From Candidatus Moraniibacteriota bacterium (lineage in GTDB: Bacteria > Patescibacteriota > Minisyncoccia > Moranbacterales > DUUL01), in contig JBFHFF010000004.1 of the NCBI GenBank assembly GCA_041583775.1, positions 2,428 through 66,427 of the forward strand: a stretch of 64,000 bases of DNA. The letters are read 5' to 3'. Positions within the stretch are counted from its first letter, which is position 1; every line of letters starts with the position of its first letter. The notes below the pieces were generated by a model, which saw nothing but the letters and a program-made list of their open reading frames with translations, was not told the origin of the DNA and ran no database searches. This document shows, one piece after another, positions 2,821 through 34,683 of the stretch. A program made the translations under genes and the position numbers.

Positions 2821-3834
2821 CTATTTCTCTATCTCAGCCTTCACAATCAATCTGTTCCAAGTTGTGCGAAGTGGCCAACAGGTAACTAGCGTCAGGCTTG
2901 TTTCGTCTGTGCTAGTGAATATTGCTGGGTCATTTGGTTTAACGACATTTTTGCTTTTGATGATATATGAGTAAGAAAAAGATCTATTGTTTTGCCCGGT
3001 TGTTTTGATGATTATCTTATCTCCAATCTCTAAATCGTTTAGTTTTTCAAAGATATAATTATAATCTCCTTTTGCCCAAACATAATTACTCGAATGACCA
3101 GAAATAACAGCGTTTCCACTTTGTCCAGGAACCCCAGTTTTTGGAAGAATTGCAACGCCTTTTTCCAAATCTTTCAACAAATCTGACTCTTTTTCGCTTT
3201 TTGACCAAATCATCGGAGCTTCCACGCCAATTTTTTCAATTGATATTAAAAAATTCAATCTGGCATCACCAGCTACTGCAGGGTCATATCCATTTTTAAT
3301 TTCGTCGGTGTCATTGAAACCATCTCCGTCAGAGTCTTGTTCAAAGGGATTTGTTAGATAAGCAAATTCAATTTGATTTATAAGTCCATCGCCATCTTGA
3401 TCTTCATCCGCGCTCTTTTCTTTTGTACTTAAACCAACTTCTTTTTCCCAGAAATCTGGCAGACCATCTCCATCTTGATCAAGTTTTCCTTCGCCAATAG
3501 GACTGTAGCCATCTCGAACTTCTTTTCCGTCATCATAGCCATCACCATCAGTATCTGGATTGAGAGGGTTTGTTGAGTTTTCATATTCAGCCAAAAGATT
3601 CAGTCCATCACCATCAATATCAGCTTCAATGTCTAAATCACTTTCTATGATAATTTCATATCTATCTAACCAAGATTGAGGGATGTTGTTTTTGTCTCCA
3701 AAATTTTGAGTACAAAAAGATTCGAATATCTTGTTAAAATTTCCTTTAAAATTGAAATTCAGAAAATAGAAGATGACGCCTGATAAAGTCAAAAAAGCCA
3801 TTACTCCTAATATTTTTTTATAATTTTTTCTCAT
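2821..3834 (-). CDS. sortase (transpeptidase) with N-terminal TM anchor and thrombospondin-type-3-like Ca-binding repeats
   Basis: C-terminal sortase motifs: conserved His (NAVISGHSS), catalytic TLxTC (LTLVTCWP), conserved Arg (TTWNRLIV). Multiple DxDGDG/DTDGDGYDDGKE repeats precede the catalytic domain. N-terminal hydrophobic anchor is present. Confidence 0.75.
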   Translation of the reverse strand: MRKNYKKILGVMAFLTLSGVIFYFLNFNFKGNFNKIFESFCTQNFGDKNNIPQSWLDRYEIIIESDLDIEADIDGDGLNLLAEYENSTNPLNPDTDGDGYDDGKEVRDGYSPIGEGKLDQDGDGLPDFWEKEVGLSTKEKSADEDQDGDGLINQIEFAYLTNPFEQDSDGDGFNDTDEIKNGYDPAVAGDARLNFLISIEKIGVEAPMIWSKSEKESDLLKDLEKGVAILPKTGVPGQSGNAVISGHSSNYVWAKGDYNYIFEKLNDLEIGDKIIIKTTGQNNRSFSYSYIIKSKNVVKPNDPAIFTSTDETSLTLVTCWPLRTTWNRLIVKAEIEK

Positions 3835-3914
3835 ATTTTTTAAAAAAATCTGTAGACCACTTCACGAAAAGCAATCCACAGATTAGTTAGAGGCTATTTT
3901 TCCAATAAAACAAA

Positions 3915-4694
3915 CTAGTAGAGTTTCCTTCGCAATTGTTTGAAAGTCAAAAAAGATAATAAGGAAAGTGTACCCGCAGCAAGTATTGTCATCATAGTTC
4001 CACTTCCAGTTGCTGGTGTGCTACGGTGAGCATAACCGAAATCTGCTTTTGTGTGATCGTCTTTATCTCCATCTAAATATACCTTTGCTTTGTTGTTAGG
4101 ATCTCCATCTGGATCATAAACTTGTGTGTAGCTATCAACATCGCTATCTTTTACATATATTTTGTAGTCTCCTTCACAAAGATCATCAAACTCATATCTA
4201 CCATTTTTATTTGTGTGAGTTGTCATTTCTTCATCATCTTTGGTATCCCATTTGAAATCTCGACCAATCCATTTTAGAGTCATTTTTATATCGTCGATAC
4301 CTTTTTCTCCATTGTCCTTTAGTCCATTTCCATTTTCATCATTCCAAACAAGGTTTCCAATTGAGCCGTCGCAAGAAGAATTTTTTCGTGATTCATGCTT
4401 GAATTCAACCTCGGTTTCAACTTCAATTTCTATTTCAGTTTCAATCTCAACCTCAACCTCTACCTCTACTTCTGGCTCTGGCTCAGGTGTAGGTTCTGGT
4501 TCTGGGCATGGCTCAGGTGTAGGTTCTTCCTCGGGAATTGGTGGATGACATTTGGGGCAAATTCTGTCATTAAACTGATCTTCCCATTTTTCAAAAAGAT
4601 CGTCATAATAGGTTGAGCCAGCAGAAGCTTTTTTGATGCCGAAAATTCCACTTAAAAGGAGAATCGCAAAAAGCAAGATAATAGCCTTCTTCAT
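3915..4694 (-). CDS. secreted surface protein: signal peptide, Pro/Glu-rich low-complexity linker, SdrD-B-like domain, C-terminal sorting-signal-like tail (TPATG + hydrophobic + KQLRRK)
   Basis: N-terminal MKKAIILLFAILLLSG signal. PEPEPTPEPEPEVEVEVE repeats. GNLVWNDENGNGLKDNGEKGIDDIKMTL...NGRYEFDDLCEGDYKIYV matches the SdrD B-repeat pattern. C-terminus HRSTPATGSG-TMMTILAAGTLSLLSFLTF-KQLRRKLY has the tripartite architecture of a sortase substrate. Confidence 0.6.
   Translation of the reverse strand: MKKAIILLFAILLLSGIFGIKKASAGSTYYDDLFEKWEDQFNDRICPKCHPPIPEEEPTPEPCPEPEPTPEPEPEVEVEVEVEIETEIEIEVETEVEFKHESRKNSSCDGSIGNLVWNDENGNGLKDNGEKGIDDIKMTLKWIGRDFKWDTKDDEEMTTHTNKNGRYEFDDLCEGDYKIYVKDSDVDSYTQVYDPDGDPNNKAKVYLDGDKDDHTKADFGYAHRSTPATGSGTMMTILAAGTLSLLSFLTFKQLRRKLY
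4403..4527. repeat. tandem short (6-bp unit) and 17-bp direct repeats inside the surface-protein gene
   Basis: ctcaac/ctctac/ttcaat units run in tandem. An exact 17-bp repeat ggctcaggtgtaggttc occurs at 4481 and 4511. Confidence 0.7.
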
Positions 4695-4862
4695 ATTTTT
4701 TAGTAAAATAATTAACTAGTTGAAATATTGTCCCTGTGCTTTAAAATAAGGTTTTTTGCCTTAAATAGGGCAATGAGGTAACTTAGCACATTGTTGCTAT
4801 TTTGTCAATGACTTTGGCTTATAAATGGGATTTTTACTGTTAATGAAAAAAATAAATAAAAT

Positions 4863-4890
4863 AAAAACCCCTTTTTCAAGGGGGTTTTTT
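4863..4890. terminator. Rho-independent terminator hairpin (cccctt/aagggg + T-run), probably terminating rpmA on the - strand
   Basis: aaaaacccctttttcaagggggtttttt directly downstream of the L27 stop. Confidence 0.6.
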
Positions 4891-4909
4891 ATGTGAAGTT
4901 TTTGAAAAA

Positions 4910-5194
4910 CTATTTTTCAGATGCTGTTATTCCAACAAATTTTACTTTTCTGATTTTTCCAGTGAAAAGTTTGATTTTTTTAGTTGAGAATACAACAATT
5001 CCATCCTTTAAGGAAATGATACTATCATCATTAGTCTTTTTGGTGTTTACTCCTGCTCGGAATTTTGAACCACGCTGTCTAATGAGGATTTCTCCAGTTT
5101 TAACTTTTTGACCGCCGAATCTTTTTACACCTAGATATTGAGGATTCGAGTCACGGGTATTATCGGTAGAACCACCGGCTTTACGATGTGCCAT
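4910..5194 (-). CDS. rpmA: 50S ribosomal protein L27
   Basis: MAHRKAGGSTDNTRDSNPQYLGVKRFGGQKVKTGEILIRQRGSKF matches the L27 N-terminal consensus closely. Confidence 0.9.
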   Translation of the reverse strand: MAHRKAGGSTDNTRDSNPQYLGVKRFGGQKVKTGEILIRQRGSKFRAGVNTKKTNDDSIISLKDGIVVFSTKKIKLFTGKIRKVKFVGITASEK

Positions 5195-5316
5195 ATTTTT
5201 AAACTTTATTCAAACGCCAAGCTAGGTAGGCACGACATTTGTTTAATGTTATAATTTACTTAACCAAAAGGATATTTCTAATTAAGCATTTCCTATTATA
5301 AATACAAAAAAATATT

Positions 5317-5757
5317 ATGTCAACAATCCTAAGACATTTTTGGGAAAAATATGATAGTCTCATTTTGATTGCCATAGCAATTTTCTTAGTTTTTGTGGTT
5401 GCATTTAAAGCTGGTCAATTAGAGAAGGGGTCAGAGAATGCTGCTAAAATAAACATCTCTTTGGCAAATAAAAAAGATGCCGAGCCCATAGATCAAAGAG
5501 CAAAAATAATTGAAGAAACTTTGCAAAGAAAGGATATTGAGAACAAGGCGAGTTCTTTGATAAGTGAAAAGCCAAGCGTACAAGAGACCCAAGAAAAGAA
5601 AGAATGTGCCTTTGTTGCATCTAAGAATTCCACAAAATATCACTTGCCAAATTGCAAAAATGCCACTAGAATCAAAGATAGTAATAAAATTTGTTTTAGT
5701 TCTGAAGAGGAGGCGAAAGCCAAGGGATATGAGCGAGCAAAGTGCTGTTTTAAATAA
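5317..5757 (+). CDS. membrane-anchored protein with C-terminal Ada-type Zn-binding-like motif
   Basis: N-terminal TM (LILIAIAIFLVFVVAF). C-terminal KYHLPNC...ICFSSEEEAKAKGYERAKCC aligns with the Ada N-terminal Zn site pattern (FCRPSC...FxSxxEAxAAGFRPCKRC). Family call is inference. Confidence 0.4.
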   Translation: MSTILRHFWEKYDSLILIAIAIFLVFVVAFKAGQLEKGSENAAKINISLANKKDAEPIDQRAKIIEETLQRKDIENKASSLISEKPSVQETQEKKECAFVASKNSTKYHLPNCKNATRIKDSNKICFSSEEEAKAKGYERAKCCFK

Positions 5758-5772
5758 TTTAAAGAAATAAAA

Positions 5773-6639
5773 ATGGTTGATCCAATAAATATTGATGCTA
5801 CAAAAATTAGAAGAAGTTTTTTTCGTTTTTGGAAATTTTTCTTAGTTTTATTCCTGGTAGTTATTTTTGGACCAAAGCTTTTAGTAACAATTAACGCAGG
5901 AGAAACTGGTGTCTATTCTCTTTTCGGAAAAGTAAGTGAAAAAGAACTCTCTTCAGGATTGCACATTGTTAATCCTCTCGGGCAAGTAACAAGGATGAAT
6001 ATTCGTACTGATGAATATACAATGAGTGTGATTCAGGGAGAAGGAAAGAGAGAGGGAGTCGATTCAATTTCAGCTCTGACTAAAGAAGGTTTGAGTATCG
6101 ATTTGGATATTACGGTATTGTATCATCTAAAGGAATCTGAGGCTTCAAGGGTGTACCAAACTGTTGGTTTGGGATATGAAGAAAAAGTCATCAGGCCAGA
6201 AATTAGAAGTGCTATCAGGGAAATTATTGCTCAATATGAAGCTAAGGATGTTTATTCTGAGAAAAGAGAGGAGGCAAATATGAAATTAAAGAATACACTT
6301 AGTGCTAAACTTGAAACAAGAGGGATTGAATTGGAAGATGTTTTATTGAGAAATGTACAGCTACCAGAAAATCTTGCCAGAACAATTCAAGAGAAATTAC
6401 AAGCAGAACAAGAATCTCAAAAATATGAATTTATTCTAGAAAAAGAAACAAAAGAAAAGCAAAGAAAAATAATTGAAGCGGAGGGACAAAGAGATGCCCA
6501 AACCATTATTACTGGAAGTCTTTCGCCTAATTATTTATATTATCTTTATATTAAAGATTTAAAAGATAGAGAGGGAACAATTTATGTTCCAACAAACCCA
6601 AGTACTGGAATGCCTACATTTAAAGAATTAGGAAAATAA
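5773..6639 (+). CDS. SPFH/band-7 (prohibitin/HflC-like) membrane protein
   Basis: N-terminal TM followed by an SPFH-like core (INAGETGVYSLFGKV...LHIVNPLGQV) and a coiled-coil, Glu/Lys-rich C-terminus. Confidence 0.7.
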   Translation: MVDPINIDATKIRRSFFRFWKFFLVLFLVVIFGPKLLVTINAGETGVYSLFGKVSEKELSSGLHIVNPLGQVTRMNIRTDEYTMSVIQGEGKREGVDSISALTKEGLSIDLDITVLYHLKESEASRVYQTVGLGYEEKVIRPEIRSAIREIIAQYEAKDVYSEKREEANMKLKNTLSAKLETRGIELEDVLLRNVQLPENLARTIQEKLQAEQESQKYEFILEKETKEKQRKIIEAEGQRDAQTIITGSLSPNYLYYLYIKDLKDREGTIYVPTNPSTGMPTFKELGK

Positions 6640-6643
6640 GAGA

Positions 6644-6675
6644 AACCCCCTCCGAAAGAGAGGGGTTTTTGTTGA
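6644..6675 (+). terminator. Rho-independent terminator after the SPFH gene
   Basis: aaaccccctccgaaagagaggggttttt: stem cccctc/gagggg followed by a T-run. Confidence 0.65.
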
Positions 6676-6716
6676 GTGTTAATGATTATTAATTTATTTA
6701 TAACAAAAAAACCTTT

Positions 6717-7421
6717 ATGCAAAAAGAAATGTTCGTAGTTTCACTCGGAGGCTCATTGATTGTTCCCGGAGAGATTAATTGGGAATTTTTAAAAGAGTTC
6801 AGAGCTTTGATTATTGAGCAAATTGAAAAGGGAAATCGCTTTATTATTGTGACTGGAGGCGGAAGTGTTACGAGGAAATATCAACAAGCTGCTGAAAAAA
6901 TTACTGACTTAACAAATGATGATTTGGATTGGTTGGGAATTCACTCTACTCGCCTGAATGCTCATCTGATAAAAACCATTTTCAGGGATTATGCGCACCC
7001 AAGAATTAACAAAAATCCTCGCACAAAAGAAGATTTGATGAGTCACTTTGAGAATGGAGAGGGGATTATGGTTGCAGCGGGATGGAGGCCAGGTTGGTCG
7101 ACTGACTATGTTTCGACAATACTTGCTGAAAGACTTGGCGCAAAAACTGTAATAAACCTTTCAAATATCAAATATGTTTGCGACAAGGATCCTAACAAAT
7201 TTGATGACGCAAAGGAATACAAAAATATCGGCTGGGCTGAATTTCGAAAACTTGTTGGCGATACCTGGGATCCAGGTTTGAATATGCCTTTTGATCCAAT
7301 TGCTTCAAAGCACGCAGAAGGGCTTGGCTTGAAGGTTGTCATTGCAGAAGGAAACAAGATTGATAATCTCAGAGATATTTTTGAGGGTAGAGATTTTATA
7401 GGTACAATCATTGAAAACTAA
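6717..7421 (+). CDS. pyrH: UMP kinase, archaeal-type short form (amino-acid kinase family)
   Basis: VVSLGGSLI...IIVTGGGSVTRKY...GIHSTRLNAHL...AAGWRPGWSTD, 234 aa. Matches archaeal PyrH layout and length. Confidence 0.75.
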   Translation: MQKEMFVVSLGGSLIVPGEINWEFLKEFRALIIEQIEKGNRFIIVTGGGSVTRKYQQAAEKITDLTNDDLDWLGIHSTRLNAHLIKTIFRDYAHPRINKNPRTKEDLMSHFENGEGIMVAAGWRPGWSTDYVSTILAERLGAKTVINLSNIKYVCDKDPNKFDDAKEYKNIGWAEFRKLVGDTWDPGLNMPFDPIASKHAEGLGLKVVIAEGNKIDNLRDIFEGRDFIGTIIEN

Positions 7422-23421: not shown

Positions 23422-23450
23422 TTGACAATAAAATCATAGGTTATATAATA
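23422..23450 (+). promoter_or_regulatory. sigma70-like promoter (TTGACA-15/17-TATAAT/ATAATA) ending 5 nt before the hsdS' ATG
   Basis: ttgacaataaaatcataggttatataata then tattt ATG. Predicts a near-leaderless transcript. Confidence 0.4.
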
Positions 23451-23455
23451 TATTT

Positions 23456-24022
23456 ATGAATAATAAAAGATTATATAAATTAACTAATATCGCAGAAATC
23501 TTTTCGGGATATTCCTTTAGGGGGGCTGTGCGTGAAGACAAAAATAGCCAAGTTTTTTTGATTCAAGCTAAGGACACAAGGAATTATTTGTCTGTAACGG
23601 AGGAAGATTTGAAGAAAATTACTGAAGAAAATTGTGGGGATAGATTTATAAAAAATGGCGATGTGGTGATAAGTGCGCGTGGATTTTTTTCAGCCACTGT
23701 TATTAATTCAAAAGAAAAAATAATCGGATCTTCCTCAGTTTATATTATAAAACCAGAGCAAAAAAAAATATTGTCTAAATACCTAGCAATTTATTTGAAT
23801 TCAAGAGTGGGACAAGCAGAAATAAAAAAATATGAAATTGGCTCAAGTATAAAAACAATTTTGATCGGTGATTTAAGAAATATTCAAATTGAAATTCCGA
23901 ATTTGAAAAAACAGCAAAAGATTGTTGAGTTATATGAAAATATTCAGAGGCAAAATGAACTCTTAGAAAAGAAAAAAGAAATTAATAAAAATATAATGGA
24001 AGCAATATTTATAAATAAATAA
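23456..24022 (+). CDS. hsdS: Type I R-M specificity subunit, half-size (single target-recognition domain)
   Basis: 188 aa. C-terminal conserved HsdS central/terminal motif IEIPNLKKQQKIVELYENIQ (cf. IPLPPLEEQKRIV). Confidence 0.6.
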   Translation: MNNKRLYKLTNIAEIFSGYSFRGAVREDKNSQVFLIQAKDTRNYLSVTEEDLKKITEENCGDRFIKNGDVVISARGFFSATVINSKEKIIGSSSVYIIKPEQKKILSKYLAIYLNSRVGQAEIKKYEIGSSIKTILIGDLRNIQIEIPNLKKQQKIVELYENIQRQNELLEKKKEINKNIMEAIFINK

Positions 24023-24026
24023 AATT

Positions 24027-25541
24027 ATGATACCAAAAAAATATACACAAGAAGATTTGAATAATACTCTTTGGGCAGCAGCTGATTCATCTAGAAGTAG
24101 TGTGGATGGGGGAATTTACAAGGATTATGCTTTGGCAATGTTATTTTTTAAATACATCAGTGATAAATCAAAAAAACAATTAGAAGAATACACAAAAAGA
24201 TTTGGCAAAGATAAGGAAAGAATTGCACAAAAAATGAAAAATGACCGTTTCTATTTGCCACCAAAAGCTACTTTTGATTATATTTATAGCGCTATCGAGA
24301 GCGATAAGATTGGTGAAGAAATCAATATAGCCTTACATGCTATTGAAGATAATAACAAGGAAAAATTAGGTGGTGTTTTTAGTGCGATTGATTTTAATTC
24401 TGAAGCTACACTGGGAAAGTTAGAACAACGCAACAAAATGATTCGTCATTTGATTAATGATTTTGCCAAAATAGATTTTAGTGATGTCAAAGAGGATGTG
24501 ATTGGCGATGCCTATATGTATATGATTGAACGCTTTGGAGCGGATGCTGGAAAGAAAGCAGGGGAATTTTTTACTAGACGATCAGTTGCATCTTTGGTGG
24601 CAAGATTAGCTAATCCAAAACCGGGAGACAGAATTTGCGATCCAGCGATGGGAAGCGCAGGTCTTTTGTTATTGGCTGGAGAAGAAGTGGAAAAAAAGGG
24701 TTCAAAAAATTATGCTCTATATGGGCAAGAGTCAACAGGAAGCACTTATCAATTGGCTAGGATGAATGTCTATTTGCATGGCAAAGATCATGCTCGCTTG
24801 GAATGGGGTGACACTTTGAATCAACCAGCACTAACAGAAAATGATAAATTGATGAAGTTCGATGTCTGTGTTGCTAATCCACCCTTTTCTCTGAAGAAGT
24901 GGGGGGCAGAAAGTGCTGAAAGCGATAAATACAAAAGATTTTGGCGTGGAACTCCTCCAAAAGACAAAGGAGATTTTGCTTTTATTACTCATATGGTGGA
25001 GACAGCTAAACCTAAAAAAGGTAGGGTATCGGTTATCGTCCCTCACGGTGTGCTTTTTCGTGGAGGAGCAGAAGGAAAAATTCGTGAGCAATTCATTCAA
25101 GAAAATATAATTGACGCGGTGATCGGACTGCCAGCCAATCTTTTTTCCACTACGGGTATTCCAGTGGCAATTTTAGTAATTGATAGATCAAGAGAAGTTG
25201 GCGGAACAAATGAAAACAAAAAAGACATTCTTTTTATTGAAGCTTCCAAGGAATTCCGTTCCGGAAAAGCGCAAAATCATTTAGACGAGGTGCATATTGA
25301 AAAAATTCTAGATACATATGACAAAAGAAAAGATGTGAAAAAATTTGCACATGTGGCAGATTTTAAGGAGATTGAGGAGAATGATTTTAATCTCAATATC
25401 ACTCGTTATGTGGATACTTTTGTTGAGGAAGAGCCGATTGATATCAAAGCTAATTTGAAAGAGCTGGAGAAACTTAACCCGGAGATTGAGAAATTGGAGA
25501 AAGAAATGGGGAAATATTTAAGAGAGTTAAACATTAAGTAG
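24027..25541 (+). CDS. hsdM: Type I R-M N6-adenine DNA methyltransferase subunit
   Basis: HsdM N-terminal domain. SAM motif I DPAMGSAGLL. Catalytic NPPF (ANPPFSLKKW). Confidence 0.9.
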   Translation: MIPKKYTQEDLNNTLWAAADSSRSSVDGGIYKDYALAMLFFKYISDKSKKQLEEYTKRFGKDKERIAQKMKNDRFYLPPKATFDYIYSAIESDKIGEEINIALHAIEDNNKEKLGGVFSAIDFNSEATLGKLEQRNKMIRHLINDFAKIDFSDVKEDVIGDAYMYMIERFGADAGKKAGEFFTRRSVASLVARLANPKPGDRICDPAMGSAGLLLLAGEEVEKKGSKNYALYGQESTGSTYQLARMNVYLHGKDHARLEWGDTLNQPALTENDKLMKFDVCVANPPFSLKKWGAESAESDKYKRFWRGTPPKDKGDFAFITHMVETAKPKKGRVSVIVPHGVLFRGGAEGKIREQFIQENIIDAVIGLPANLFSTTGIPVAILVIDRSREVGGTNENKKDILFIEASKEFRSGKAQNHLDEVHIEKILDTYDKRKDVKKFAHVADFKEIEENDFNLNITRYVDTFVEEEPIDIKANLKELEKLNPEIEKLEKEMGKYLRELNIK

Positions 25542-25547
25542 AGATAT

Positions 25548-25790
25548 ATGAGAAATAAAACATTAAAAACAACAAAAGAGACTTCAACTGGTCTAAATAA
25601 AAAAAGTATTGATTTGAAAAATCTTTCTGAAAAGGAAAATAAAGAGCTTATTAAAAAAGCTGATGCTGGAAATCTTCCTGGATATCATACTGTTAAAGCT
25701 GATGGTAAGAAAAAATTCTTAAGATCAAATCCTGATCGAAAGAAGAGTAACAATCTTGATCCTAAAATATCAAAAAAGGGTAAAAAATAA
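25548..25790 (+). CDS. small Lys-rich hypothetical protein embedded in the R-M operon
   Basis: 80 aa, very basic, 6 nt after hsdM. Confidence 0.4.
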   Translation: MRNKTLKTTKETSTGLNKKSIDLKNLSEKENKELIKKADAGNLPGYHTVKADGKKKFLRSNPDRKKSNNLDPKISKKGKK

Positions 25791-25804
25791 ATTAAAGGAT
25801 AACT

Positions 25805-26794
25805 ATGGCAAAAGCCCGATATAAAAATTTAGTAGATAAATCTGTACAGGCAGCAGTTTCTGCTATTGAGATTTACAATAAGCCAGATTTTAAATATCGG
25901 GAAGAGACTTTTGCTATCCTTATGATTAATGCCTGGGAGTTGTTGTTTAAAGCAAAAATCCTTTTAGATAATGATGGTAGGTTAAAAAGTATATATATTC
26001 CAGATAGGACTGAGAATTCAAAAGGAGAAAAATTAAAACGTTTTTATCCTAAAAAAAATCGCTCAGGAAATCCTCTAACTCTTGATATATTCTCATCAAT
26101 AAAACTTCTTAAGATAGATAATACTCTAAGTAAGAATATAGGTTTAATGGTTGAAATTAGGGACAATGCTATTCATTTTGTGAATGATTCAAAAGAATTT
26201 GAGAAAATAGTTCTTGAGATAGGAACAGCGACACTAAGAAGTTTTGTAACTTTGGTAAATGAATGGTTTGATTGTGATTTGGCAAATTATAATTTTTATT
26301 TAATGCCTATATCATTTTTTCATACTTTTGAAATGGAGAGCTTTTCTGTTAACAAAAAGAGTAAACAAAAAGAAAATTTTTTTGCTTTTATTTCAAATGA
26401 ATTAAATGAAAACTCTGCTGATTTAAATAAAAAACATAACATCGCATTGAGACTAGAGACAAGATTTGAAAAATCTAAATCAGTTGATGCACTGGCAGTG
26501 AGATATTCAAAAGATTCGCCAATTGTAGTAAGGCAAGAAATGGAAAATCGTATTCATGAAGGATTAAAAAACAAAAGTTTGTTTTCTCATGAAGACTTCG
26601 TTTCAAAATTAAGAGAAAAGATTCCAAATTTTAAAATAGACAAAGATTTTAATAAGCAGAAAAATGAAATGAAGAAAGATTCAAAATATTGTCTGACAGC
26701 GTATTTAAATCCCTTGGAAAAAAGCGGAACAAAAAGGCACTACTGGACAACGGAAGCAATGAAAAAAATTAAAATTCTATATGACAAAAAATAA
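25805..26794 (+). CDS. hypothetical protein embedded between hsdM and hsdS (possibly DUF3644-like)
   Basis: N-terminus AIEIYNKPDFKYREETFAILMINAWELLFKAKIL resembles what I recall of DUF3644. Its stop overlaps the hsdS start by 14 nt. Family call is low-confidence memory. Confidence 0.45.
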   Translation: MAKARYKNLVDKSVQAAVSAIEIYNKPDFKYREETFAILMINAWELLFKAKILLDNDGRLKSIYIPDRTENSKGEKLKRFYPKKNRSGNPLTLDIFSSIKLLKIDNTLSKNIGLMVEIRDNAIHFVNDSKEFEKIVLEIGTATLRSFVTLVNEWFDCDLANYNFYLMPISFFHTFEMESFSVNKKSKQKENFFAFISNELNENSADLNKKHNIALRLETRFEKSKSVDALAVRYSKDSPIVVRQEMENRIHEGLKNKSLFSHEDFVSKLREKIPNFKIDKDFNKQKNEMKKDSKYCLTAYLNPLEKSGTKRHYWTTEAMKKIKILYDKK

Positions 26795-28034
26795 ATCACA
26801 AAAAAATATACCTGATGGGTGGCAAGAAATAAAGCTCGGAGAGATATCCAGTGTGTTTGATGGTACTCATCAAACACCAAATTATACAAAAAGTGGAATC
26901 CCATTTTACAGCGTAGAGCATTTGACAGCAAATGACTTTACGGATACGAAATATGTTTCAGAGGAAGTTTTTGAGCGAGAATCCAAGAGGGTTAAAATTG
27001 AGAAAGGTGACATTTTGATGACAAGAATAGGCGATGTAGGAACAGCTAGACATATAAATTGGGATGTGAAAGCATCTTTTTATGTATCACTTGCCTTAAT
27101 TAAATGCAAAAAAGATGTGAACGCAAAATTTTTAACTTTTTTTATAAACTCAGCATATTTTCAACGAGAAGTATGGGGCAAAACTATCCATGTTGCCTTT
27201 CCAAACAAGATAAACTTAGGAGATATAAGCAAATGCGTGTCCATTCTCCCTCCTCTCCCCGAACAAAAACGCATTGTTGCGTTGCTGGAGGTTTGGGATG
27301 AGGTGGTTGAGAAATTGGGGAGGAAAATTGAGGTTAAGAAAAATATCAAAAAAGGTTTGATGCAGGAGCTTTTGAGTGGTAAAAAAAGATTGAGTGGGTT
27401 TAAAGAAGGGTGGCGAGATATAAAAATTTCCAAATTAGGAAAAAATTATTCTGGTATTACTGGAAAAAATAAAGATGATTTTGGTTCAGGAAAACCTTTT
27501 ATTTCATATATGAACATTTATTCCAATTCTAAATTGGATACTGATTTTAAAAGTTTTGTTGATATAAAAAATGGTGAAAAACAAAATGCTGCTAAATACG
27601 GTGATTTATTTTTTACAACATCATCAGAAACTCCCCATGAAGTTGGAATTAGCTCAGTATTATTGGATAAAAATGTAGGAGAATTATATTTAAACAGTTT
27701 TTGTTTTGGTTTTAGGTTGAATAATTTTAAAATATTAATTCCGGAATTTTCTCAATTTTATTTCAGAGGACAATATTTCAGGAAGCAAATGACGAGAATT
27801 GCACAAGGTGCAAGTAGGTTCAATTTATCTAAAAAATACTTTTTGGAAACAAAAATAAATATTCCGAAAGATATTAAAGAACAAAAAGCAATTGCAGATA
27901 TCTTAGTGACGGCTGATTGGGAAATTGAGAAATTGGAAGAAAAATTAAGAATCATTAAGGATCAAAAAAAATATCTTCTAAACAATCTCATCACCGGCGC
28001 AATCCGCACGCCCGAGAACTTATTAATTAATTAA
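26781..28034 (+). CDS. hsdS: Type I R-M specificity subunit, full two-TRD form
   Basis: Central conserved LPPLPEQKRIVALLE and C-terminal IPKDIKEQKAIADIL...LITGAIRTPE repeats typical of HsdS. Confidence 0.85.
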   Translation: MTKNKSQKNIPDGWQEIKLGEISSVFDGTHQTPNYTKSGIPFYSVEHLTANDFTDTKYVSEEVFERESKRVKIEKGDILMTRIGDVGTARHINWDVKASFYVSLALIKCKKDVNAKFLTFFINSAYFQREVWGKTIHVAFPNKINLGDISKCVSILPPLPEQKRIVALLEVWDEVVEKLGRKIEVKKNIKKGLMQELLSGKKRLSGFKEGWRDIKISKLGKNYSGITGKNKDDFGSGKPFISYMNIYSNSKLDTDFKSFVDIKNGEKQNAAKYGDLFFTTSSETPHEVGISSVLLDKNVGELYLNSFCFGFRLNNFKILIPEFSQFYFRGQYFRKQMTRIAQGASRFNLSKKYFLETKINIPKDIKEQKAIADILVTADWEIEKLEEKLRIIKDQKKYLLNNLITGAIRTPENLLIN

Positions 28035-28043
28035 AGTAATCCA

Positions 28044-28271
28044 ATGGAAAATTACAGAGACTGGGATAATGATTCAGGAATTGAAGCTTATGAAATTGAA
28101 AACGATGCCATAATTATTCAATTTAAAAATGGAAGAAATAAATTTTATAAATATACAAATTTTTCTTGTGGCTCAGATAATATTGCTATAATGAAACAAC
28201 TTGCTTGTGAAGGAGAGGGACTTAACGAATTTATTGTTGAAAATAAAATTGAGTACGAATCTAAATGGTAA
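28044..28271 (+). CDS. KTSC-domain small protein
   Basis: IEAYEIENDAIIIQFKNGRNKFYKYTNFSCGSDNIAIMKQLACEGEGLNEFI fits the KTSC pattern (S.i..v.Y......L.v.F..G..Y.Y..v......l..A.S.G.y.n..I). Confidence 0.5.
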   Translation: MENYRDWDNDSGIEAYEIENDAIIIQFKNGRNKFYKYTNFSCGSDNIAIMKQLACEGEGLNEFIVENKIEYESKW

Positions 28272-28287
28272 TTTTTTGAATACTATT

Positions 28288-29136
28288 ATGAAAAAGAGAC
28301 CAACAGAAAACAATATCCGCCCAACAATTTTTGAACAAAAAGAAGTGCGTCGAGTGTGGCACAATGAACAATGGTTTTTTGTTATAAATGATATTGTAAG
28401 TGCGCTCACGCAAACATCAAATGTTTCTGATTATATTAAAAAAATGAGATTGCGAGATATTGAGCTTGGAAAAGGGTGGGGACAGATTGTCACCCCCCTT
28501 TCTGTGAAGACCAAGGGTGGCTTGCAGAAATTAAATTGTGGTGATTTGAAGGGAATTTTTCGTATTATTCAATCAATTCCATCTCCCAAGGCTGAACCGT
28601 TTAAACAATGGTTGGCGAGAGTGGGACAAGAAAGAATTGAGGAGATTCAAGATCCTGAAAGGGCAATTGTGCGAGCCAAAAAAATCTATGAACAAAAGGG
28701 TTACAAAGATGACTGGATTGCTAAAAGAATGCGAGGGATTAATGTGCGGAATACTTTGACGGACGAATGGAAAGAAAGAGGTGCAAGAGGTGGCTTTGAT
28801 TTTGCTATTTTGACTAACGAAATTTATCGAGGTGCATTTGAAATGGATGCCAAGCAGATTAAGGAATTTAAATCATTAGACAATCCAGATAACCCAAGAG
28901 ATCATATGTCAGAACTTGAGCTTATTTTAACAATGCTTGGAGAGGCGACGACCACAGAAATTACTACTACTAAAAATTCAAAAGGTTTATCGGAATTATC
29001 TCAAGATGCAAAAGAAGGTGGACAAGTGGCGGGTAGAACCAGGAAAGATATTGAGAAGCAAACAGGCAAAAAAATAATTTTAGAAAATAATTTTAAAAAC
29101 CAGAAACTTTTAAGAAGTAAATTTAAGAAAAAATAA
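28288..29136 (+). CDS. Bro-N / DinD-like (DNA-damage-inducible protein D family) protein
   Basis: N-terminus IRPTIFEQKEVRRVWHNEQWFFVINDIVSAL is Bro-N-like. C-terminal FDFAILTNEIYRGAFEMDAKQIKEFK...HMSELELILTMLGEATTTEI aligns with E. coli DinD DFAIFQNHGYQGLYGGL...ILDHMGSTELAANLFRATQTEE. Start chosen at MKKRPTEN. Confidence 0.55.
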   Translation: MKKRPTENNIRPTIFEQKEVRRVWHNEQWFFVINDIVSALTQTSNVSDYIKKMRLRDIELGKGWGQIVTPLSVKTKGGLQKLNCGDLKGIFRIIQSIPSPKAEPFKQWLARVGQERIEEIQDPERAIVRAKKIYEQKGYKDDWIAKRMRGINVRNTLTDEWKERGARGGFDFAILTNEIYRGAFEMDAKQIKEFKSLDNPDNPRDHMSELELILTMLGEATTTEITTTKNSKGLSELSQDAKEGGQVAGRTRKDIEKQTGKKIILENNFKNQKLLRSKFKKK

Positions 29137-29137
29137 T

Positions 29138-32100
29138 ATGAGCATATTAAACATAGATTTCGACGAAGCCAGACAATCACAACTACCCTTTGTGGAATTG
29201 CTTTTAAATTTGGGCTACAAATACATATCTCGAGAGGAGCTGCTGCAAGAACGAAAAGGAGACACAGGAAAATTTATCTTGCGAAAAACTGCCAGTGAGG
29301 TCTTGATGAAAATCAATAGCTATGAGTATGCTGGAAAGGAATATAAATTTAGCGAAGAAAAAGTTTTTGAAGCTATTGATGAATTGGAAAACATTCCCTA
29401 TGAAGGTTTAGTAGATACTTCAGCCAAAATTTATCAAACTATCATGCCAACTAGCGGAGGGAAAACCATTCAAGTTTTTCATGATGGCAAAAAAATGAGT
29501 CAAAATTTTCGTTTTATTGATTTTGAAAATGTAGAAAATAATGTTTTTCAAGTGGCGGTGGAATTCGAGGCTACAGGGAAAGAAAACATTCGTCCAGACA
29601 TCGTGGTTTTTATAAACGGCATTCCCTTGGCCATAATCGAAAATAAAAAAGCTAGCGTTGATGTCCAAGAAGCTTTGAGACAAATGATCCGTAATCAAAG
29701 AGCAGAATATTGTCCAAGACTCTTCATATATCCGCAATTATTAGTTGCTACAAACGGCAAAGATTTGCGTTATGGCACCACAGCTACCCCGACAGAATTC
29801 TATGCTAAGTGGCGAGAGAAAGATGGAGAAAAAGAATTAGAAGAAAAAGTAGAAAATCTAATTTCTACAAAAATTGAAAAGGACCTTTATAAAAAAGTTT
29901 GTCTAGACCTCAATGGAGCAACTAAAAATCATTTACAAAAAATCAATCGTGATGTAACTGAGCAAGATCGGGGTGTGGTGGCAATTTTTGATAAACATAG
30001 AATTTTAGATTTAGCAAAGAACTTTATTCTTTATGATGCAGGTATAAAAAAAGTAATGCGCTACCAGCAATATTTTGCTATTAAGAGAATTTTAGAGAGA
30101 ATAGAACATAGAGTTCCTGGCAAAGATGGAGACAAAAGAGAAGGAGGTATTTTATGGCATACTCAAGGAAGTGGAAAGTCATTAACAATGGTAATGTTTA
30201 TCAAGGCCTTGATTGAAAGTCCCGAAATTATAAATCCTCGAGTATTGATTGTGACTGATAGAAAAGATTTGGATAGGCAAATTAAAGGAACTTTTGAAAA
30301 TGCAGGATTGAAAAAAGAAGTGGTGCAGGCTAAAAGTGGAGAGGATCTTTTGAATCTTATTGAGAAAAAAGATTTAAGCGTGGTGACAACTCTTATTCAG
30401 AAATTTCAATCGGCCAGTAGAAAGAATGTTGGTTTTGAAGATTTGGATGATAATATTTTTGTATTGATTGATGAAGCCCATCGGTCACAGGGAGGAGAAG
30501 CAAACATTGAAATGAATCGTATCATTCCCAATGCTTGCTATATTGCTTTCACTGGCACGCCTCTTCTTAAGAAAGAAAAGTCGAAAAATAAATTTGGTAG
30601 TTTTATCGATAAATATACTATTGATGATGCTCTGACTGATGAGATTATTTTGCCCTTGATCTACGAAGGACGCTATGTGGATCTTCATCAAGACAAAAAA
30701 GAAGTTGATAGACAATGGGACAGAGTGACTGATGGTTTGCCAGATGCTCATAAATATCAATTGCAACAAGATATTGAAAAGAAAATTATTGCCAATAACC
30801 CAAGTCGTATTGCAGAGATTTCTTATGACATTGAAAAACATTACATAACTAGATTCAAAGATACAGGACTAAAAGCACAAATTGTAGCACCATCAAAATA
30901 TTCAGCTGTACTTTTTGAAAAATATTTCAAAGAGAGCGGAAAAGTTCAAACTGCCTTGGTAATTTCTGATGAAAATGGTCTTATCGACATGAAAGATAGC
31001 CATAAAAGAGACGTGGATGAATATTTGAAAGATATAAAAGAGAAATATCAGAGCTTAAAGAAATATGAAGAAAGTGTTATTGATAGTTTTAAATACAACG
31101 AGGACGGTGTGGAAATTTTGATCGTGGTAGACAAATTATTAACCGGTTTTGATGCTCCACGGAACACTGTTTTGTATTTAGCCAAGGAACTCAGAGATCA
31201 CAATTTATTACAAGCCATTGCTAGAGTAAATCGGCTATTTGATAATCGAAACTTGCCAAAAACCGCTGGGTATATTATTGATTATTCAGAGAATGCTCAG
31301 AATATTAGAACCGCAATGCAACTTTTTGGAAATTATGATGGGGATGATGTGGCTGGTGCGCTTATTGATGTGAGGGAAAAAATTAATGAGTTGGATGATC
31401 ACTATGGAAAACTGCACGATATATTTAGAGGAGTCAAGGATGATGATGAAGCATATTTGAAATATTTGGAAGATGAGCAGATAAGAAAAGAATTTTATGA
31501 CGGGATAAGAAAATTTTTAACTACCTTTAATGAATGTATGAATTTACGGGATTTTGTTCATGAGTTTGAAAATATTGATATTTATCGTAAAGAGTTGAAA
31601 AAATTCATGGAGCTGCGTAAAATCGCAAGCGTTCGTTACGCGGAGAGAGTTGATTTTGCAAAATACAAACAAGCGCTGACAAAAATCATGGATGAAAATA
31701 TCCGAGCAGAAGAGGTAGAGTTTTTGACGAGAGAAATTACTATTACTGATAAGGATGCTTTTGAAAAAGTTATTGAAGAGCTAGGGTCTGATAAATCAAA
31801 AGCTGATGCAATCACCGCTCAAACGAAAAAGATTATTTCAGAAAATGCAGTGAAAGATCCAGAATTTTATAATAGATTCTCTAAGCAAATCAATGATTTA
31901 ATCGAAGAGATGCGGTTAGGAAAAATTGCTGATATTGAAGCTTTGAAAGAAGCGCGTAAAATTAATGAGGAGGTTAATGATAAAAAGGACGAAACTGTTC
32001 CATTGGAGTTAAGCGACAAAGCTGGTGCAGATATAATTTTTCGAAATATTAAAAAGGAATTCGATGATTTGAATGTGACAGAGGATCAATATGTAGAAAT

Positions 32101-32317
32101 CATTTCCAATTTACACGGAGTGATTTGTGATAATGCTGTTGTGGACTGGTGGAAAAATAGTGAACATAAAAGAAGAATGAAAGAAGTTATCGATGATTAT
32201 CTTTATGATGAAGTTAAAATAAAGATGGACATTGAGCTTACTAATGAAAAGATAGAGGAAATGATTGATATCGTTATGGATTTAGTTCAAAATAATCACG
32301 AGATCTTTAGCTTATGA
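29138..32317 (+). CDS. hsdR: Type I restriction enzyme R subunit (nuclease plus SF2 helicase)
   Basis: N-terminal PD-(D/E)xK PDIVVFINGIPLAIIENKK. Helicase motif I GSGKS. Motif II VLIDEAHRSQ. 1059 aa. Confidence 0.9.
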   Translation: MSILNIDFDEARQSQLPFVELLLNLGYKYISREELLQERKGDTGKFILRKTASEVLMKINSYEYAGKEYKFSEEKVFEAIDELENIPYEGLVDTSAKIYQTIMPTSGGKTIQVFHDGKKMSQNFRFIDFENVENNVFQVAVEFEATGKENIRPDIVVFINGIPLAIIENKKASVDVQEALRQMIRNQRAEYCPRLFIYPQLLVATNGKDLRYGTTATPTEFYAKWREKDGEKELEEKVENLISTKIEKDLYKKVCLDLNGATKNHLQKINRDVTEQDRGVVAIFDKHRILDLAKNFILYDAGIKKVMRYQQYFAIKRILERIEHRVPGKDGDKREGGILWHTQGSGKSLTMVMFIKALIESPEIINPRVLIVTDRKDLDRQIKGTFENAGLKKEVVQAKSGEDLLNLIEKKDLSVVTTLIQKFQSASRKNVGFEDLDDNIFVLIDEAHRSQGGEANIEMNRIIPNACYIAFTGTPLLKKEKSKNKFGSFIDKYTIDDALTDEIILPLIYEGRYVDLHQDKKEVDRQWDRVTDGLPDAHKYQLQQDIEKKIIANNPSRIAEISYDIEKHYITRFKDTGLKAQIVAPSKYSAVLFEKYFKESGKVQTALVISDENGLIDMKDSHKRDVDEYLKDIKEKYQSLKKYEESVIDSFKYNEDGVEILIVVDKLLTGFDAPRNTVLYLAKELRDHNLLQAIARVNRLFDNRNLPKTAGYIIDYSENAQNIRTAMQLFGNYDGDDVAGALIDVREKINELDDHYGKLHDIFRGVKDDDEAYLKYLEDEQIRKEFYDGIRKFLTTFNECMNLRDFVHEFENIDIYRKELKKFMELRKIASVRYAERVDFAKYKQALTKIMDENIRAEEVEFLTREITITDKDAFEKVIEELGSDKSKADAITAQTKKIISENAVKDPEFYNRFSKQINDLIEEMRLGKIADIEALKEARKINEEVNDKKDETVPLELSDKAGADIIFRNIKKEFDDLNVTEDQYVEIISNLHGVICDNAVVDWWKNSEHKRRMKEVIDDYLYDEVKIKMDIELTNEKIEEMIDIVMDLVQNNHEIFSL

Positions 32318-33018
32318 AAAAAATAAAATTTATTTATGGAAAATATAGTTATGAATATATTTTAATTCTAGAGAAAAGAAAGTCTTTAAGTTTGGCAATA
32401 TATCCAGATATGAAAATTGTTTTAAAATCTCCCGACAACCTTAATGCAGATGCTATTGAAAAATTTCTTAAAAAAAAGTGGTTATGGATGGAAAAGCAAC
32501 TACAATTTTTTTCTCAATTTCAAGGGAAAAAAGTTAAAAAAAGTTATGTTTCAGGTGAGAGTTTTTTGTATTTAGGTCGTCAATATAAATTGATTGTGGA
32601 GAAATCTGATCAGGATTCTATGTTACTGCAAAAAGGAAGGTTAGTACTCAGTACAACAGGAGAATTAAGAGATGGTAACAAAAATAAAAAATTAATTAAG
32701 AAGTGGTATAATGATAGAATAGAAGTTATATTTAAAGAAAGATTTGAGGAAGTAAGAAGAAATTTTGACTATGATTTTGAGTTTAAGTTGACTATCAGAA
32801 AAATGAATAAACGATGGGGGAGTTATGCTAGAAATAACACTATATCATTAAATCCACTATTAATTAATGCTTCTAAAAAATGTATTGATTATGTAATAAC
32901 TCACGAATTATGCCATGCAGAAAATAAGAAGCATGACAATAAATTTTTTCAATTATTATCTCGTAAATTTCCAAATTGGCAGAAAGTAAAGGAGGAGCTA
33001 GAGTTGAGGTTTACTTAA
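32314..33018 (+). CDS. YgjP-like DUF45 (SprT/WLM-related) metallopeptidase-fold protein
   Basis: HExxH (ITHELCHAENKKH). ATGA overlap with the hsdR stop. Confidence 0.7.
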   Translation: MKKIKFIYGKYSYEYILILEKRKSLSLAIYPDMKIVLKSPDNLNADAIEKFLKKKWLWMEKQLQFFSQFQGKKVKKSYVSGESFLYLGRQYKLIVEKSDQDSMLLQKGRLVLSTTGELRDGNKNKKLIKKWYNDRIEVIFKERFEEVRRNFDYDFEFKLTIRKMNKRWGSYARNNTISLNPLLINASKKCIDYVITHELCHAENKKHDNKFFQLLSRKFPNWQKVKEELELRFT

Positions 33019-33213: not shown

Positions 33214-34683
33214 ATGCCCCATCTCTCAAAAACAGACTTTAAAGAGTATCTAATTTGCCCAAAGTGTCTTTGGTTGAAGAGGAAGAGACCCAATGACTAT
33301 GTTCAAGGGGAATTTTCTGCGTTCCTAAAAAAGCTGATAAAGGATGGATATGAAGTTGAGGAATATTTCAAACAATTCTTTCCTTTGGGGGTGACCGTTT
33401 GGAGCAGGAAGGAAAAAGCGGTGGAGGAGACAAAGGAACTGATTGAGCAGAAAAAGACAATCTTCCAAGCCACAATCGAAACGGAAGATGGAACTTTTGC
33501 GAAGATTGATGTTTTGGAATTCAACGAGAAAGAAAACAACTGGAGTCTCTATGAAGTGAAATCTGGCTCAAGCATCAAGAACGACTTGTTTCACAACCAC
33601 ATCAAAGACATTGCGTTTCAGAAGATAGCACTTGAAAAATCAGGACTTGAAATTGGGAAAAGCTTCTTGGTGCACTTGAACAAGGAGTATCGAAGAGCCG
33701 GAGAGATTGAACTTGAAAAACTCTTCATCTTCAATGAAGTTTCAGCGAAGATTGATGAAATTCAAAAAGAAACAGAGCAAGAAATCTCACAGGCACTGGA
33801 GCTTTTGAAAAAAGATGACATTGATCTTAGCGGTTGCGAGTGTCTCTATCAAAGTAGTGGGCAAAGATGTGATTGTTTCAAATTCTTCAATCCCCAGGTT
33901 CCCGCCTATTCAACGGGACATATTTTTAAAAAAAAGAAATTGCGAGCCTTGATCGAGGATGGAATCTTTGATCCAATCGATGTTCCTGATGATTTAAAAA
34001 TGACTGATGCGCAAGCAACCAAAGTTGAATTGCAAAAGAGTGGGATTCCACAAATAGACAAGGTCGCTGTTGACGCAACGCTGTCAGAATTGGTCTATCC
34101 TTTGTATTTCTTCGATTATGAAACATTTGGAAAGCCTGTGCCTCTTTTGGACGGATACAAGACCAGTCAGCAGTTGGTGTTTCAATATTCCTTGCATGTT
34201 TTGCACAAAAACGGAAAACTTGAGCATTTTGAATATCTAGCAGACAAGTTGGAAGGTGCAACAAAAGGCTTGGTGGAATCCATGAAAGCGAACATTGGTC
34301 CAGTCGGAAGCATTTTGGTTTGGTATGAATCTTTTGAGAAAAGCAGAAACTGCGAACTGATGGAACTGCACCCCGAGGCAAAGGAGTTTTTGGAGGATAT
34401 GAACGAGAGAATTTTTGATTTGATGAAGGTTTTCAAGAAAGATTATCTGCATCCAGAATTCAACGGAAGCGCCTCAATCAAAAAAGTGTTGCCTGTTTTG
34501 GTGCCAGAACTTTCATATGCAGAGCTGGATGTGCAAAATGGAACAATGGCAATCGAAGCCTGGGGCAGAACAATCTTTGAGAAAGTTGATAAAAAGGAAA
34601 TCGAAGAGATCAGAAGAAATCTCCTGAAATATTGCGAGCTGGATACATTGGCAATGGTTAAGATATTGGAAAAAATAAGTTAG
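33214..34683 (+). CDS. DUF2779-family protein: Cas4/RecB-like PD-(D/E)xK nuclease with 4-Cys cluster fused to RNase-H-like (DnaQ-like) domain
   Basis: N-terminus LSKTDFKEYLICPKCLWL. Cys cluster CECLYQSSGQRCDC. C-terminal FFDYETF and ELDTLAMVKI exonuclease-like motifs. Confidence 0.6.
   Translation: MPHLSKTDFKEYLICPKCLWLKRKRPNDYVQGEFSAFLKKLIKDGYEVEEYFKQFFPLGVTVWSRKEKAVEETKELIEQKKTIFQATIETEDGTFAKIDVLEFNEKENNWSLYEVKSGSSIKNDLFHNHIKDIAFQKIALEKSGLEIGKSFLVHLNKEYRRAGEIELEKLFIFNEVSAKIDEIQKETEQEISQALELLKKDDIDLSGCECLYQSSGQRCDCFKFFNPQVPAYSTGHIFKKKKLRALIEDGIFDPIDVPDDLKMTDAQATKVELQKSGIPQIDKVAVDATLSELVYPLYFFDYETFGKPVPLLDGYKTSQQLVFQYSLHVLHKNGKLEHFEYLADKLEGATKGLVESMKANIGPVGSILVWYESFEKSRNCELMELHPEAKEFLEDMNERIFDLMKVFKKDYLHPEFNGSASIKKVLPVLVPELSYAELDVQNGTMAIEAWGRTIFEKVDKKEIEEIRRNLLKYCELDTLAMVKILEKIS

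Follow-up and report, generated by a model that had tools for sequence, protein, structure and literature searches.

A 64,000-nucleotide (nt) stretch of DNA from a Candidatus Moraniibacteriota bacterium (contig JBFHFF010000004.1, positions 2,428-66,427; hereafter the window, to which all coordinates below refer) contains a compact Type I restriction-modification (R-M) operon on the + strand, in which open reading frames (ORFs) of 75 and 282 amino acids (aa) lie between hsdS and hsdR. The longer of these ORFs (28288-29136, + strand) encodes a protein of the DinD family, with a Bro-N domain followed by a DinD-like C-terminus; it occupies a variable slot in a lineage of operons where DinD-family genes recur, and it is cargo of the operon, not an R-M subunit. 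Nesting of such a gene in an hsd operon is an already catalogued phenomenon, as the PADLOC candidate PDC-S13, and the interest of the present case rests mainly on a connection to DdrC of Deinococcus radiodurans and on the repeated embedding of the family in hsd and cas4-cas1 operons. The protein is apparently related to DdrC, which is a better mechanistic lead than the functions first proposed for it in an earlier reading of the same sequence (the original prediction), namely modulation of restriction, by anti-restriction or self-protection, or an independent role as an abortive-infection effector. The explanation that we prefer, at a probability of roughly 0.45, is that this DinD-family protein is a stand-alone DNA-binding protein, horizontally mobile and housed in a variable slot, which binds DNA lesions or recombination intermediates and acts on the breaks made by HsdR.

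A DinD-family gene in a variable slot of a Type I operon

The original prediction placed both ORFs between hsdS and hsdR, exactly where we found them on the + strand, and gave the longer product 283 aa; translated from its ATG, the protein has 282 aa. Homologues are 270-285 aa long, so that a start at the upstream TTG at 28201 is unsupported. The predicted Bro-N N-terminus was recovered with the Pfam profile PF02498 (44.3 bits vs. a cut-off of 25.6; E = 2.8e-11), which aligns this DNA-binding domain with residues 19-110 (28342-28617, + strand) over profile positions 1-91 of 96. Beyond it lies a helical module (residues ~141-259; 28708-29064, + strand) that is related to the C-terminal parts of DinD and D. 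radiodurans DdrC. The AlphaFold2 (AF2) model of the protein has a mean predicted local distance difference test score (pLDDT) of 90.5 and a predicted template modeling score (pTM) of 0.74, and its Bro-N region consists of a beta-hairpin, helices, a second beta-hairpin and a helix. A conserved motif, QSIPSPKAEPFKxWLA, marks the junction of the two domains in the family of the window protein. The protein is basic (isoelectric point (pI) 9.77; 55 lysines and arginines vs. 39 aspartates and glutamates), and no catalytic, toxic or membrane domain was found in it.

The resemblance of the C-terminal region to E. coli DinD, originally noticed by eye, reflects remote but significant homology, and does not extend to orthology. 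Direct comparison with BLASTP yields 29% identity to E. coli DinD over 120 aa (E = 9e-8), and an hhalign comparison of a 35-sequence family alignment with four canonical DinDs yields a probability of 94.7% (E = 6e-8, 171 columns). Against the NCBIfam DinD model PRK11525, the protein scores 23.6 bits, over residues 152-257 only, far below the equivalog cut-off of 242, and accordingly is not an orthologue of E. coli DinD. Because Bro-N is also present in E. coli DinD (E = 1.5e-7), the whole architecture, a Bro-N domain followed by a helical C-terminal domain, is common to the two proteins, and both domain order and C-terminal homology place the window protein in the DinD family in the wide sense (Bro-N plus the DinD C-terminal module). 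The two proteins differ in that they are only ~21-29% identical and in the junction motif, which distinguishes the window protein from E. coli DinD. The E. coli dinD gene belongs to the SOS response, is conserved, and has a constant position in the chromosome that is not within a defence island; its product is described as an inhibitor of post-synaptic RecA filaments (Uranga et al. 2011, cited in PMC10602874).

Both proteins also fall into PADLOC PDC-S13, through different sub-models. The window protein matches PDLC04920 over practically its full length (E = 9.5e-104; residues 11-278 vs. profile positions 6-275 of 286), and E. coli DinD matches PDLC04919 (E = 2.4e-121). The PDC systems comprise 145 candidates embedded in BREX, DISARM or Type I R-M operons (bioRxiv 10.1101/2024.01.29.577857), and the embedding seen in the window is of the kind that was used to pick PDC families. 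New defence systems are currently being found among genes nested in restriction operons; PDC-S13, which includes DinD, is among the most abundant of the nested families, and its role in defence is still that of a candidate. No mention of PDC-S13 by name was found in a literature search.

The family is large and widespread. Searches with the 282-aa protein produced more than 8000 matches, of which the top 120 share at least 69% identity and come mostly from Patescibacteria; at E <= 1e-3 the family comprises 6299 clusters at 50% identity, and relatives with ~50% identity are spread over many bacterial phyla as well as archaea. Some members are carried on plasmids, and in sequenced phages the family was detected in 4 of 50,697 records, all of them short unannotated contigs. 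The DinD-type C-terminal module (query residues ~107-250) was also observed behind KilA-N, in proteins annotated as containing that domain (H22, H26 and H27) from plasmids of Bacteroides, Hymenobacter and Planktothrix; the module can thus be joined to N-terminal DNA-binding domains of two kinds.

We compared the operon with 19 metagenomic loci gathered by HsdR similarity alone. The backbone (half-size hsdS, hsdM, slot 1, hsdS, slot 2, hsdR, ygjP) is kept at 61-93% identity, and the contents of the two slots, slot 1 between hsdM and hsdS and slot 2 between hsdS and hsdR, vary from locus to locus and include RhuM, RhuM-Fic, AntA, NYN, SMODS with AGS_C, and DUF3644. Of 11 related operons, with the window counted, 5 carry DinD-family cargo, which represents two subfamilies and occurs in both slots. 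A 94%-identical copy of the window gene directly precedes an 84%-identical hsdR in the sister loci L132-L135 (slot 2), and canonical DinDs, 54-59% identical to E. coli DinD, occupy slot 1 of L115 (2798-3607) and L118 (4488-5312). An 86-aa DinD fragment is found in slot 1 of L117 (1792-2052). The canonical DinD cargo was missed by tblastn with the window protein and was identified by comparing slot ORFs with E. coli DinD. The HsdR proteins of the canonical-DinD operons are 61-85% identical to that of the window, which is high for distant hosts and suggests horizontal transfer. Neither slot holds a DinD-family gene in the remaining 6 of the 11 operons; this absence, together with the lack of any HsdR, HsdM or HsdS domain in the protein, agrees with the original statement that DinD-like proteins are not standard R-M components. 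Cargo carried by a defence operon that tolerates insertions would be expected to show just such a recurrent but facultative link, whether or not there is functional synergy.

Other combinations of dinD with hsd genes are on record. The PADLOC model PDLC03083 describes a DinD-HsdS fusion, of which the first 267 positions are matched by E. coli DinD (E = 3e-114); the Btr190I S subunit, fused to dinD, is still active (PMC4996451); and a coding sequence combining dinD and RhuM lies within an hsd locus (PMC9881135). RhuM and AntA/Ant-type proteins occupy the same cargo slots in L114, L117 and L119, and differ from the window protein in their C-terminal modules (the RhuM core or Fic, and AntA), none of which was detected in it. 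The PrrC/RloC-type genes are likewise extra co-oriented genes nested between hsd genes, and PrrC is the classic case of functional coupling of an embedded gene to its R-M host. In contrast to PrrC/RloC, however, the window protein has no ABC ATPase or anticodon-nuclease domain, and whereas PrrC is almost exclusively hsd-embedded, the family of the window protein is found mostly outside hsd operons.

Within the window operon, the 282-aa gene is probably co-transcribed with hsdMSR, judging from gene spacing and flanking signals. The gaps between hsdS, the 75-aa ORF, the DinD-like gene and hsdR are 9, 16 and 1 nt, the hsdR ATG lying 1 nt past the stop codon of the DinD-like gene. Directly upstream of the first hsd gene, a sigma-70-type promoter-like site (23422-23449, + strand; TTGACA-16-TATAAT, 12 of 12 consensus positions) is the likely operon promoter, read as a consensus match only, given that the promoter scan as a whole did not rise above shuffled sequences (58 sites vs. 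51 expected). No terminator-like site was found on the + strand until 35232. The small gaps, the perfect promoter-like site and the absence of a terminator before 35232 together make co-transcription likely.

Similarity to DdrC and the proposed activity

DdrC is the only solved structure (PDB 7UDI, 7QVB, 8U0G) that matches the window protein, by profile as well as by fold. When the family profile was run with hmmsearch against the complete set of PDB sequences, D. radiodurans DdrC was the sole match, with an E-value of 4e-4 when DinD was included in the alignment and 4e-3 when it was not; the alignment pairs window residues 142-259 with DdrC 114-224. Comparison with a small DdrC alignment by hhalign gave E = 1.6e-4. 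Foldseek searches of the PDB with the AF2 model retrieved six DdrC chains (E = 1e-6 to 4e-5, probability 1.00) in alignments of 211-252 columns, and the next-best match had an E-value of 0.78. In the reverse direction, the top 10 of 4591 ORFs ranked by a DdrC hidden Markov model (HMM) were all DinD-like, with 84 DinD-like ORFs among the 4591; the DdrC profile is thin, being built from 7 mostly truncated homologues, and the E-values of this search were not individually significant.

The two proteins also share the order of their secondary-structure elements, namely beta-hairpin, helices, wing, helix, two linker helices and a four-helix bundle, and in both the bundle has a short helix and a turn between its helices 2 and 3. 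Near-invariant residues of the window-protein family (W143, R147, R154, R204, D205 and E211) align to identical residues in DdrC, so that the invariant positions shared by the two proteins read W, R, R, RD, EL. In the N-terminal part, a possible likeness was noted by eye between F..VR of DdrC, which contains the nick-sensing R14, and F15....VR21 of the window protein. We infer homology to DdrC with good support in the case of the C-terminal domain, and tentatively in that of the N-terminal one.

DdrC, which like E. coli DinD is damage-inducible, is an asymmetric, domain-swapped homodimer (PMC11347143, PMC9303277). Its C-terminal domain provides general binding to duplex DNA and its N-terminal domain is specific for nicks and double-strand breaks, so that DdrC traps lesions pairwise and circularises or compacts DNA (PMC11347143). 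The DdrC papers report no homologues outside Deinococcus and a C-terminal domain that matches no family (PMC11347143, PMC9303277), and no paper linking DdrC to DinD or Bro-N was found in our literature search. Comparison of the three DdrC structures with the family alignments (A1 and A2) gives DdrC the appearance of a divergent DinD/Bro-N member. If this is true, DdrC is the first solved structure for the DinD/Bro-N family and supplies a specific assay, preferential binding of paired nicks or ends with compaction of DNA; it also hints at what E. coli DinD may recognise, and challenges the status of DdrC as unique to Deinococcus.

The basic pI of 9.8, together with the activities of DdrC and DinD, underlies the proposal that the window protein may bind DNA lesions or recombination intermediates, an activity suggested by homology to DdrC. 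Coupling to restriction is likewise a proposal: co-expression with HsdR, a break-making enzyme, would place the protein at the ends that HsdR makes, where it might hold or cap the termini of cleaved invader DNA and impede its recombinational rescue, or might limit the damage from self-restriction and accidental self-cuts. R-M proteins would not be needed for its function, since most members of the family live without them. Because the family is found repeatedly beside HsdR and in the cas4-cas1 interval, the idea that break sensors cooperate with break-making immune systems can be put to the test.

Several observations weigh against this reading. Identity to DdrC is ~10-12%, the sequence signal is modest (E = 1e-3 to 1e-4), and TM-scores are 0.31-0.50 with large root-mean-square deviations (rmsd), although modest TM-scores fit with the fact that the two chains of DdrC themselves differ by 7.4 Å rmsd. 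The isolated DdrC N-terminal domain (8u1j) was not significantly similar in Foldseek (E = 3.6), the Pfam Bro-N HMM did not match the DdrC homologue P0281, and a profile of the 4 canonical DinDs did not retrieve DdrC from the PDB. The N-terminal domain of DdrC is described as a negatively charged winged helix-turn-helix resembling the Dachshund homology domain, and only ~2 of the four C-terminal DdrC residues required for DNA binding align to basic residues in the window protein. On the side of genomic context, several close relatives lie between housekeeping genes, embedding could be a genomic-sink effect without functional coupling, and PDC-S13 is a bioinformatic label for a defence candidate.

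The same similarity allows a broader reading, which we regard as doubtful: DdrC could be a divergent branch of the DinD/Bro-N family, and the whole family, including DinD and PDC-S13, could consist of break or nick sensors that were repeatedly recruited into immune operons in which DNA ends are made or processed. Recruitment would have occurred into Type I R-M systems, between hsd genes or by fusion to them, and into CRISPR adaptation modules, between cas4 and cas1. The recruited proteins would, for example, trap the ends of restricted DNA, block RecA-mediated rescue or handle spacer precursors.

Genomic contexts of homologues and alternative explanations

To the operon comparison we added a comparison from the side of the gene, with a sample of 80 species-representative homologues and up to 10 kb of flanking sequence each. 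An HsdM-type gene detectable with the window HsdM was present next to 1 of the 80 homologues (L093, directly adjacent), and no HsdR or HsdS detectable with the window proteins was found near any of the 80. Pfam N6_Mtase matched 2 immediate neighbours. The immediate neighbours are heterogeneous overall, the commonest being Cas4 (5), integrase (4), N6_N4 methylase (4) and Cas1; cas4 adjoins ~6% of the homologues (5 of 80), and several homologues lie between cas4 and cas1. Copies embedded in hsd and cas operons are scattered on the tree, which indicates independent insertions.

DinD-like genes inside CRISPR adaptation modules were observed in L108 and also in L046, L048, L057 and L078. In L108, plasmid pACLO of Arcobacter cloacae, the gene (5986-6882) is part of the arrangement cas7-cas5-cas3-ATPase-cas4-[Bro-N/DinD-like]-cas1b-cas2.

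Outside the sister operon, the closest relatives of the window gene (78-85% identical) were found in four unrelated contexts: between MatE and DapB; in a small element, where an 80%-identical relative has an excisionase-like HTH_17 gene on one side and a serine recombinase gene on the other; between rplT and a gene of the Band_7 type; and in the vicinity of KilA-N and SNase genes. The original prediction asked whether co-occurrence with Type I hsd genes is recurrent: it is when viewed from the operon (5 of 11), and is not when viewed from the gene (1 of 80). Random contexts in relatives had been named as a finding that would speak against that prediction, and for this subfamily the contexts are largely of that kind. 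The single HsdM-type neighbour among 80 homologues and the unrelated contexts of the close relatives indicate that the hsd link is facultative, as for cargo, and not obligate.

Among the alternatives to a mobile lesion-binding protein, the one that survives best, and which we nevertheless consider improbable, is an independent single-gene anti-phage system (PDC-S13) that shares the operon and that would detect phage DNA or proteins by means of Bro-N and stop infection on its own, possibly as a back-up for failed restriction. The full-length PDC-S13 match favors it, although PDC-S13 is a candidate label; PDC families were picked by guilt-by-embedding, and for seven sister candidates the tests came out positive (Payne et al., bioRxiv 10.1101/2024.01.29.577857). 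The slots of related operons hold defence-type genes (SMODS/AGS_C, NYN, RhuM-Fic, DUF3644/PDC-S19), Cas4, Cas1, DNA methylases and integrases are over-represented among the immediate neighbours of homologues elsewhere, and the spread over bacteria and archaea at ~50% identity is wide and patchy. On the other hand, the protein is made of helices and a DNA-binding domain, with no catalytic, toxic or membrane domain, E. coli DinD has the fixed location of a conserved SOS gene away from defence islands, and close relatives of the window gene sit among housekeeping genes.

Less probable again is a dedicated Type I accessory that would work in physical contact with HsdS, HsdM or HsdR, and would either modulate restriction after damage (alleviation, self-protection) or recruit the complex to lesions. 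An association of this kind could account for DinD-family cargo in 5 of the 11 related operons and in either slot, for the DinD-HsdS fusions (PDLC03083; the active Btr190I S, PMC4996451), for the tight gene spacing, which fits translational coupling, and for co-inheritance with hsdR in the sister lineage, where the gene is more conserved than hsdR itself (94% vs. 84%). It does not sit well with the finding that 6 of the 11 operons work without a DinD-family gene and that only 1 of 80 homologues has an hsd neighbour; in addition, the same slots hold unrelated cargo (NYN, RhuM-Fic, AntA, SMODS, DUF3644), and the same gene inserts between cas4 and cas1 too.

It is quite unlikely that the protein is an antirepressor or Bro-type regulator of transcription or replication that an integrative element left behind or that travels with one, devoid of a role in defence. 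Homologues are named 'phage antirepressor' in source databases, PHROG matches to Ant antirepressors are obtained via the Bro-N part, viral proteins of the same overall fold exist, and integrases are among the commonest neighbours; the 80%-identical relative described above also lies in a small element of this sort, flanked by HTH_17 (excisionase-like) and serine recombinase genes. The family is, however, very rare in sequenced phages (4 of 50,697 records) and strongly conserved in sequence within cellular operons, and no recombinase or phage genes were found in or beside the hsd operon of the window.

An anti-restriction protein, acting as a DNA mimic or HsdR inhibitor, is very improbable and is the only rival that we set aside with any confidence, on charge and context: its sole support is the position beside hsdR, whereas the DNA mimics Ocr and ArdA are acidic and the window protein is strongly basic (pI 9.8), encoded on the same strand in the host's own hsd operon and almost absent from phages, so that the anti-restriction role originally entertained is unlikely.

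Other genes of the operon and the 75-aa ORF

The operon begins with a half-size HsdS of 188 aa with one target-recognition domain (23456-24022, + strand; Pfam Methylase_S, E = 2.7e-14), followed by the methyltransferase HsdM (24027-25541, + strand; Pfam N6_Mtase, E = 1.5e-97, plus HsdM_N). The placement of a half-size hsdS before hsdM, besides a full-length hsdS, is kept across the operon lineage (L115-L121), and no shufflon-type inverted or direct repeats were found between the two hsdS genes of the window. Slot 1 (25548-26794, + strand) holds genes for a DUF3892 protein of 80 aa (25548-25790, + strand; Pfam) and a DUF3644 protein of 329 aa (25805-26794, + strand), the latter matching the PADLOC candidate PDC-S19 (PDLC04954, E = 1.3e-102). 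DUF3644 occurs again in slot 1 of L116. A two-gene cassette was observed in slot 1 of L115 (3865-5656) and L119 (4947-6708), encoding a 160-aa membrane-like protein and a SMODS/AGS_C nucleotidyltransferase of ~435 aa, and is possibly a defence module based on nucleotide signalling, CBASS-like or otherwise.

The full-length HsdS of 417 aa (26781-28034, + strand; Pfam Methylase_S in two stretches, E = 3.8e-23) precedes slot 2, and the restriction and translocase subunit HsdR (29138-32317, + strand; Pfam HSDR_N, SWI2_SNF2, ResIII and T1R_D3-like) follows it. The end of hsdR is overlapped by a gene for a YgjP-like metallopeptidase of the SprT/WLM type (32314-33018, + strand; PF01863, E = 8e-49). 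Wherever a related locus extends far enough beyond hsdR (L113-L129), a YgjP-like gene is present there, so that it gives the impression of being a fixed fifth component of this Type I system. Downstream of the operon lies a gene for a DUF2779/Cas4-like PD-(D/E)XK protein (33214-34683, + strand) with weak Cas4/RecB-like and RNase H-like matches; by tblastn, it is absent from the position after the operon in the related loci checked. Rfam gave no matches in the window.

The first gene of slot 2, the 75-aa ORF (28044-28271, + strand), appears from its conservation to be a real but rare small protein: eight homologues were identified, most of them 75 aa long and 64-71% identical. The protein is acidic (pI 4.4) and its AF2 model has a pLDDT of 85.7. 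The KTSC label given to it earlier is weakly justified at best, since one of the 8 homologues matches PF13619 (E = 0.0044), whereas the window protein itself has no Pfam match even at E <= 10. Searches of NCBIfam and PADLOC with the 75-aa protein were also without a match, its profile gave chance-level matches to ribosomal S6 in the PDB, and Foldseek returned nothing significant. The two ORFs of slot 2 do not form the pair for which they had been taken. Homologues of the 75-aa protein occur without DinD-like or hsd genes nearby, and in the sister operon L132 a 290-nt non-coding spacer takes the place of the 75-aa ORF before the 94%-identical DinD-like gene; the 75-aa ORF is independent cargo and not half of a conserved pair. 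In L002-L005 (~3600-6200), its homologues are part of a conserved run of small unannotated genes that adjoins TfoX_N, MazG-like and faint HEPN matches and has a DNA polymerase III gamma/tau-like gene upstream.

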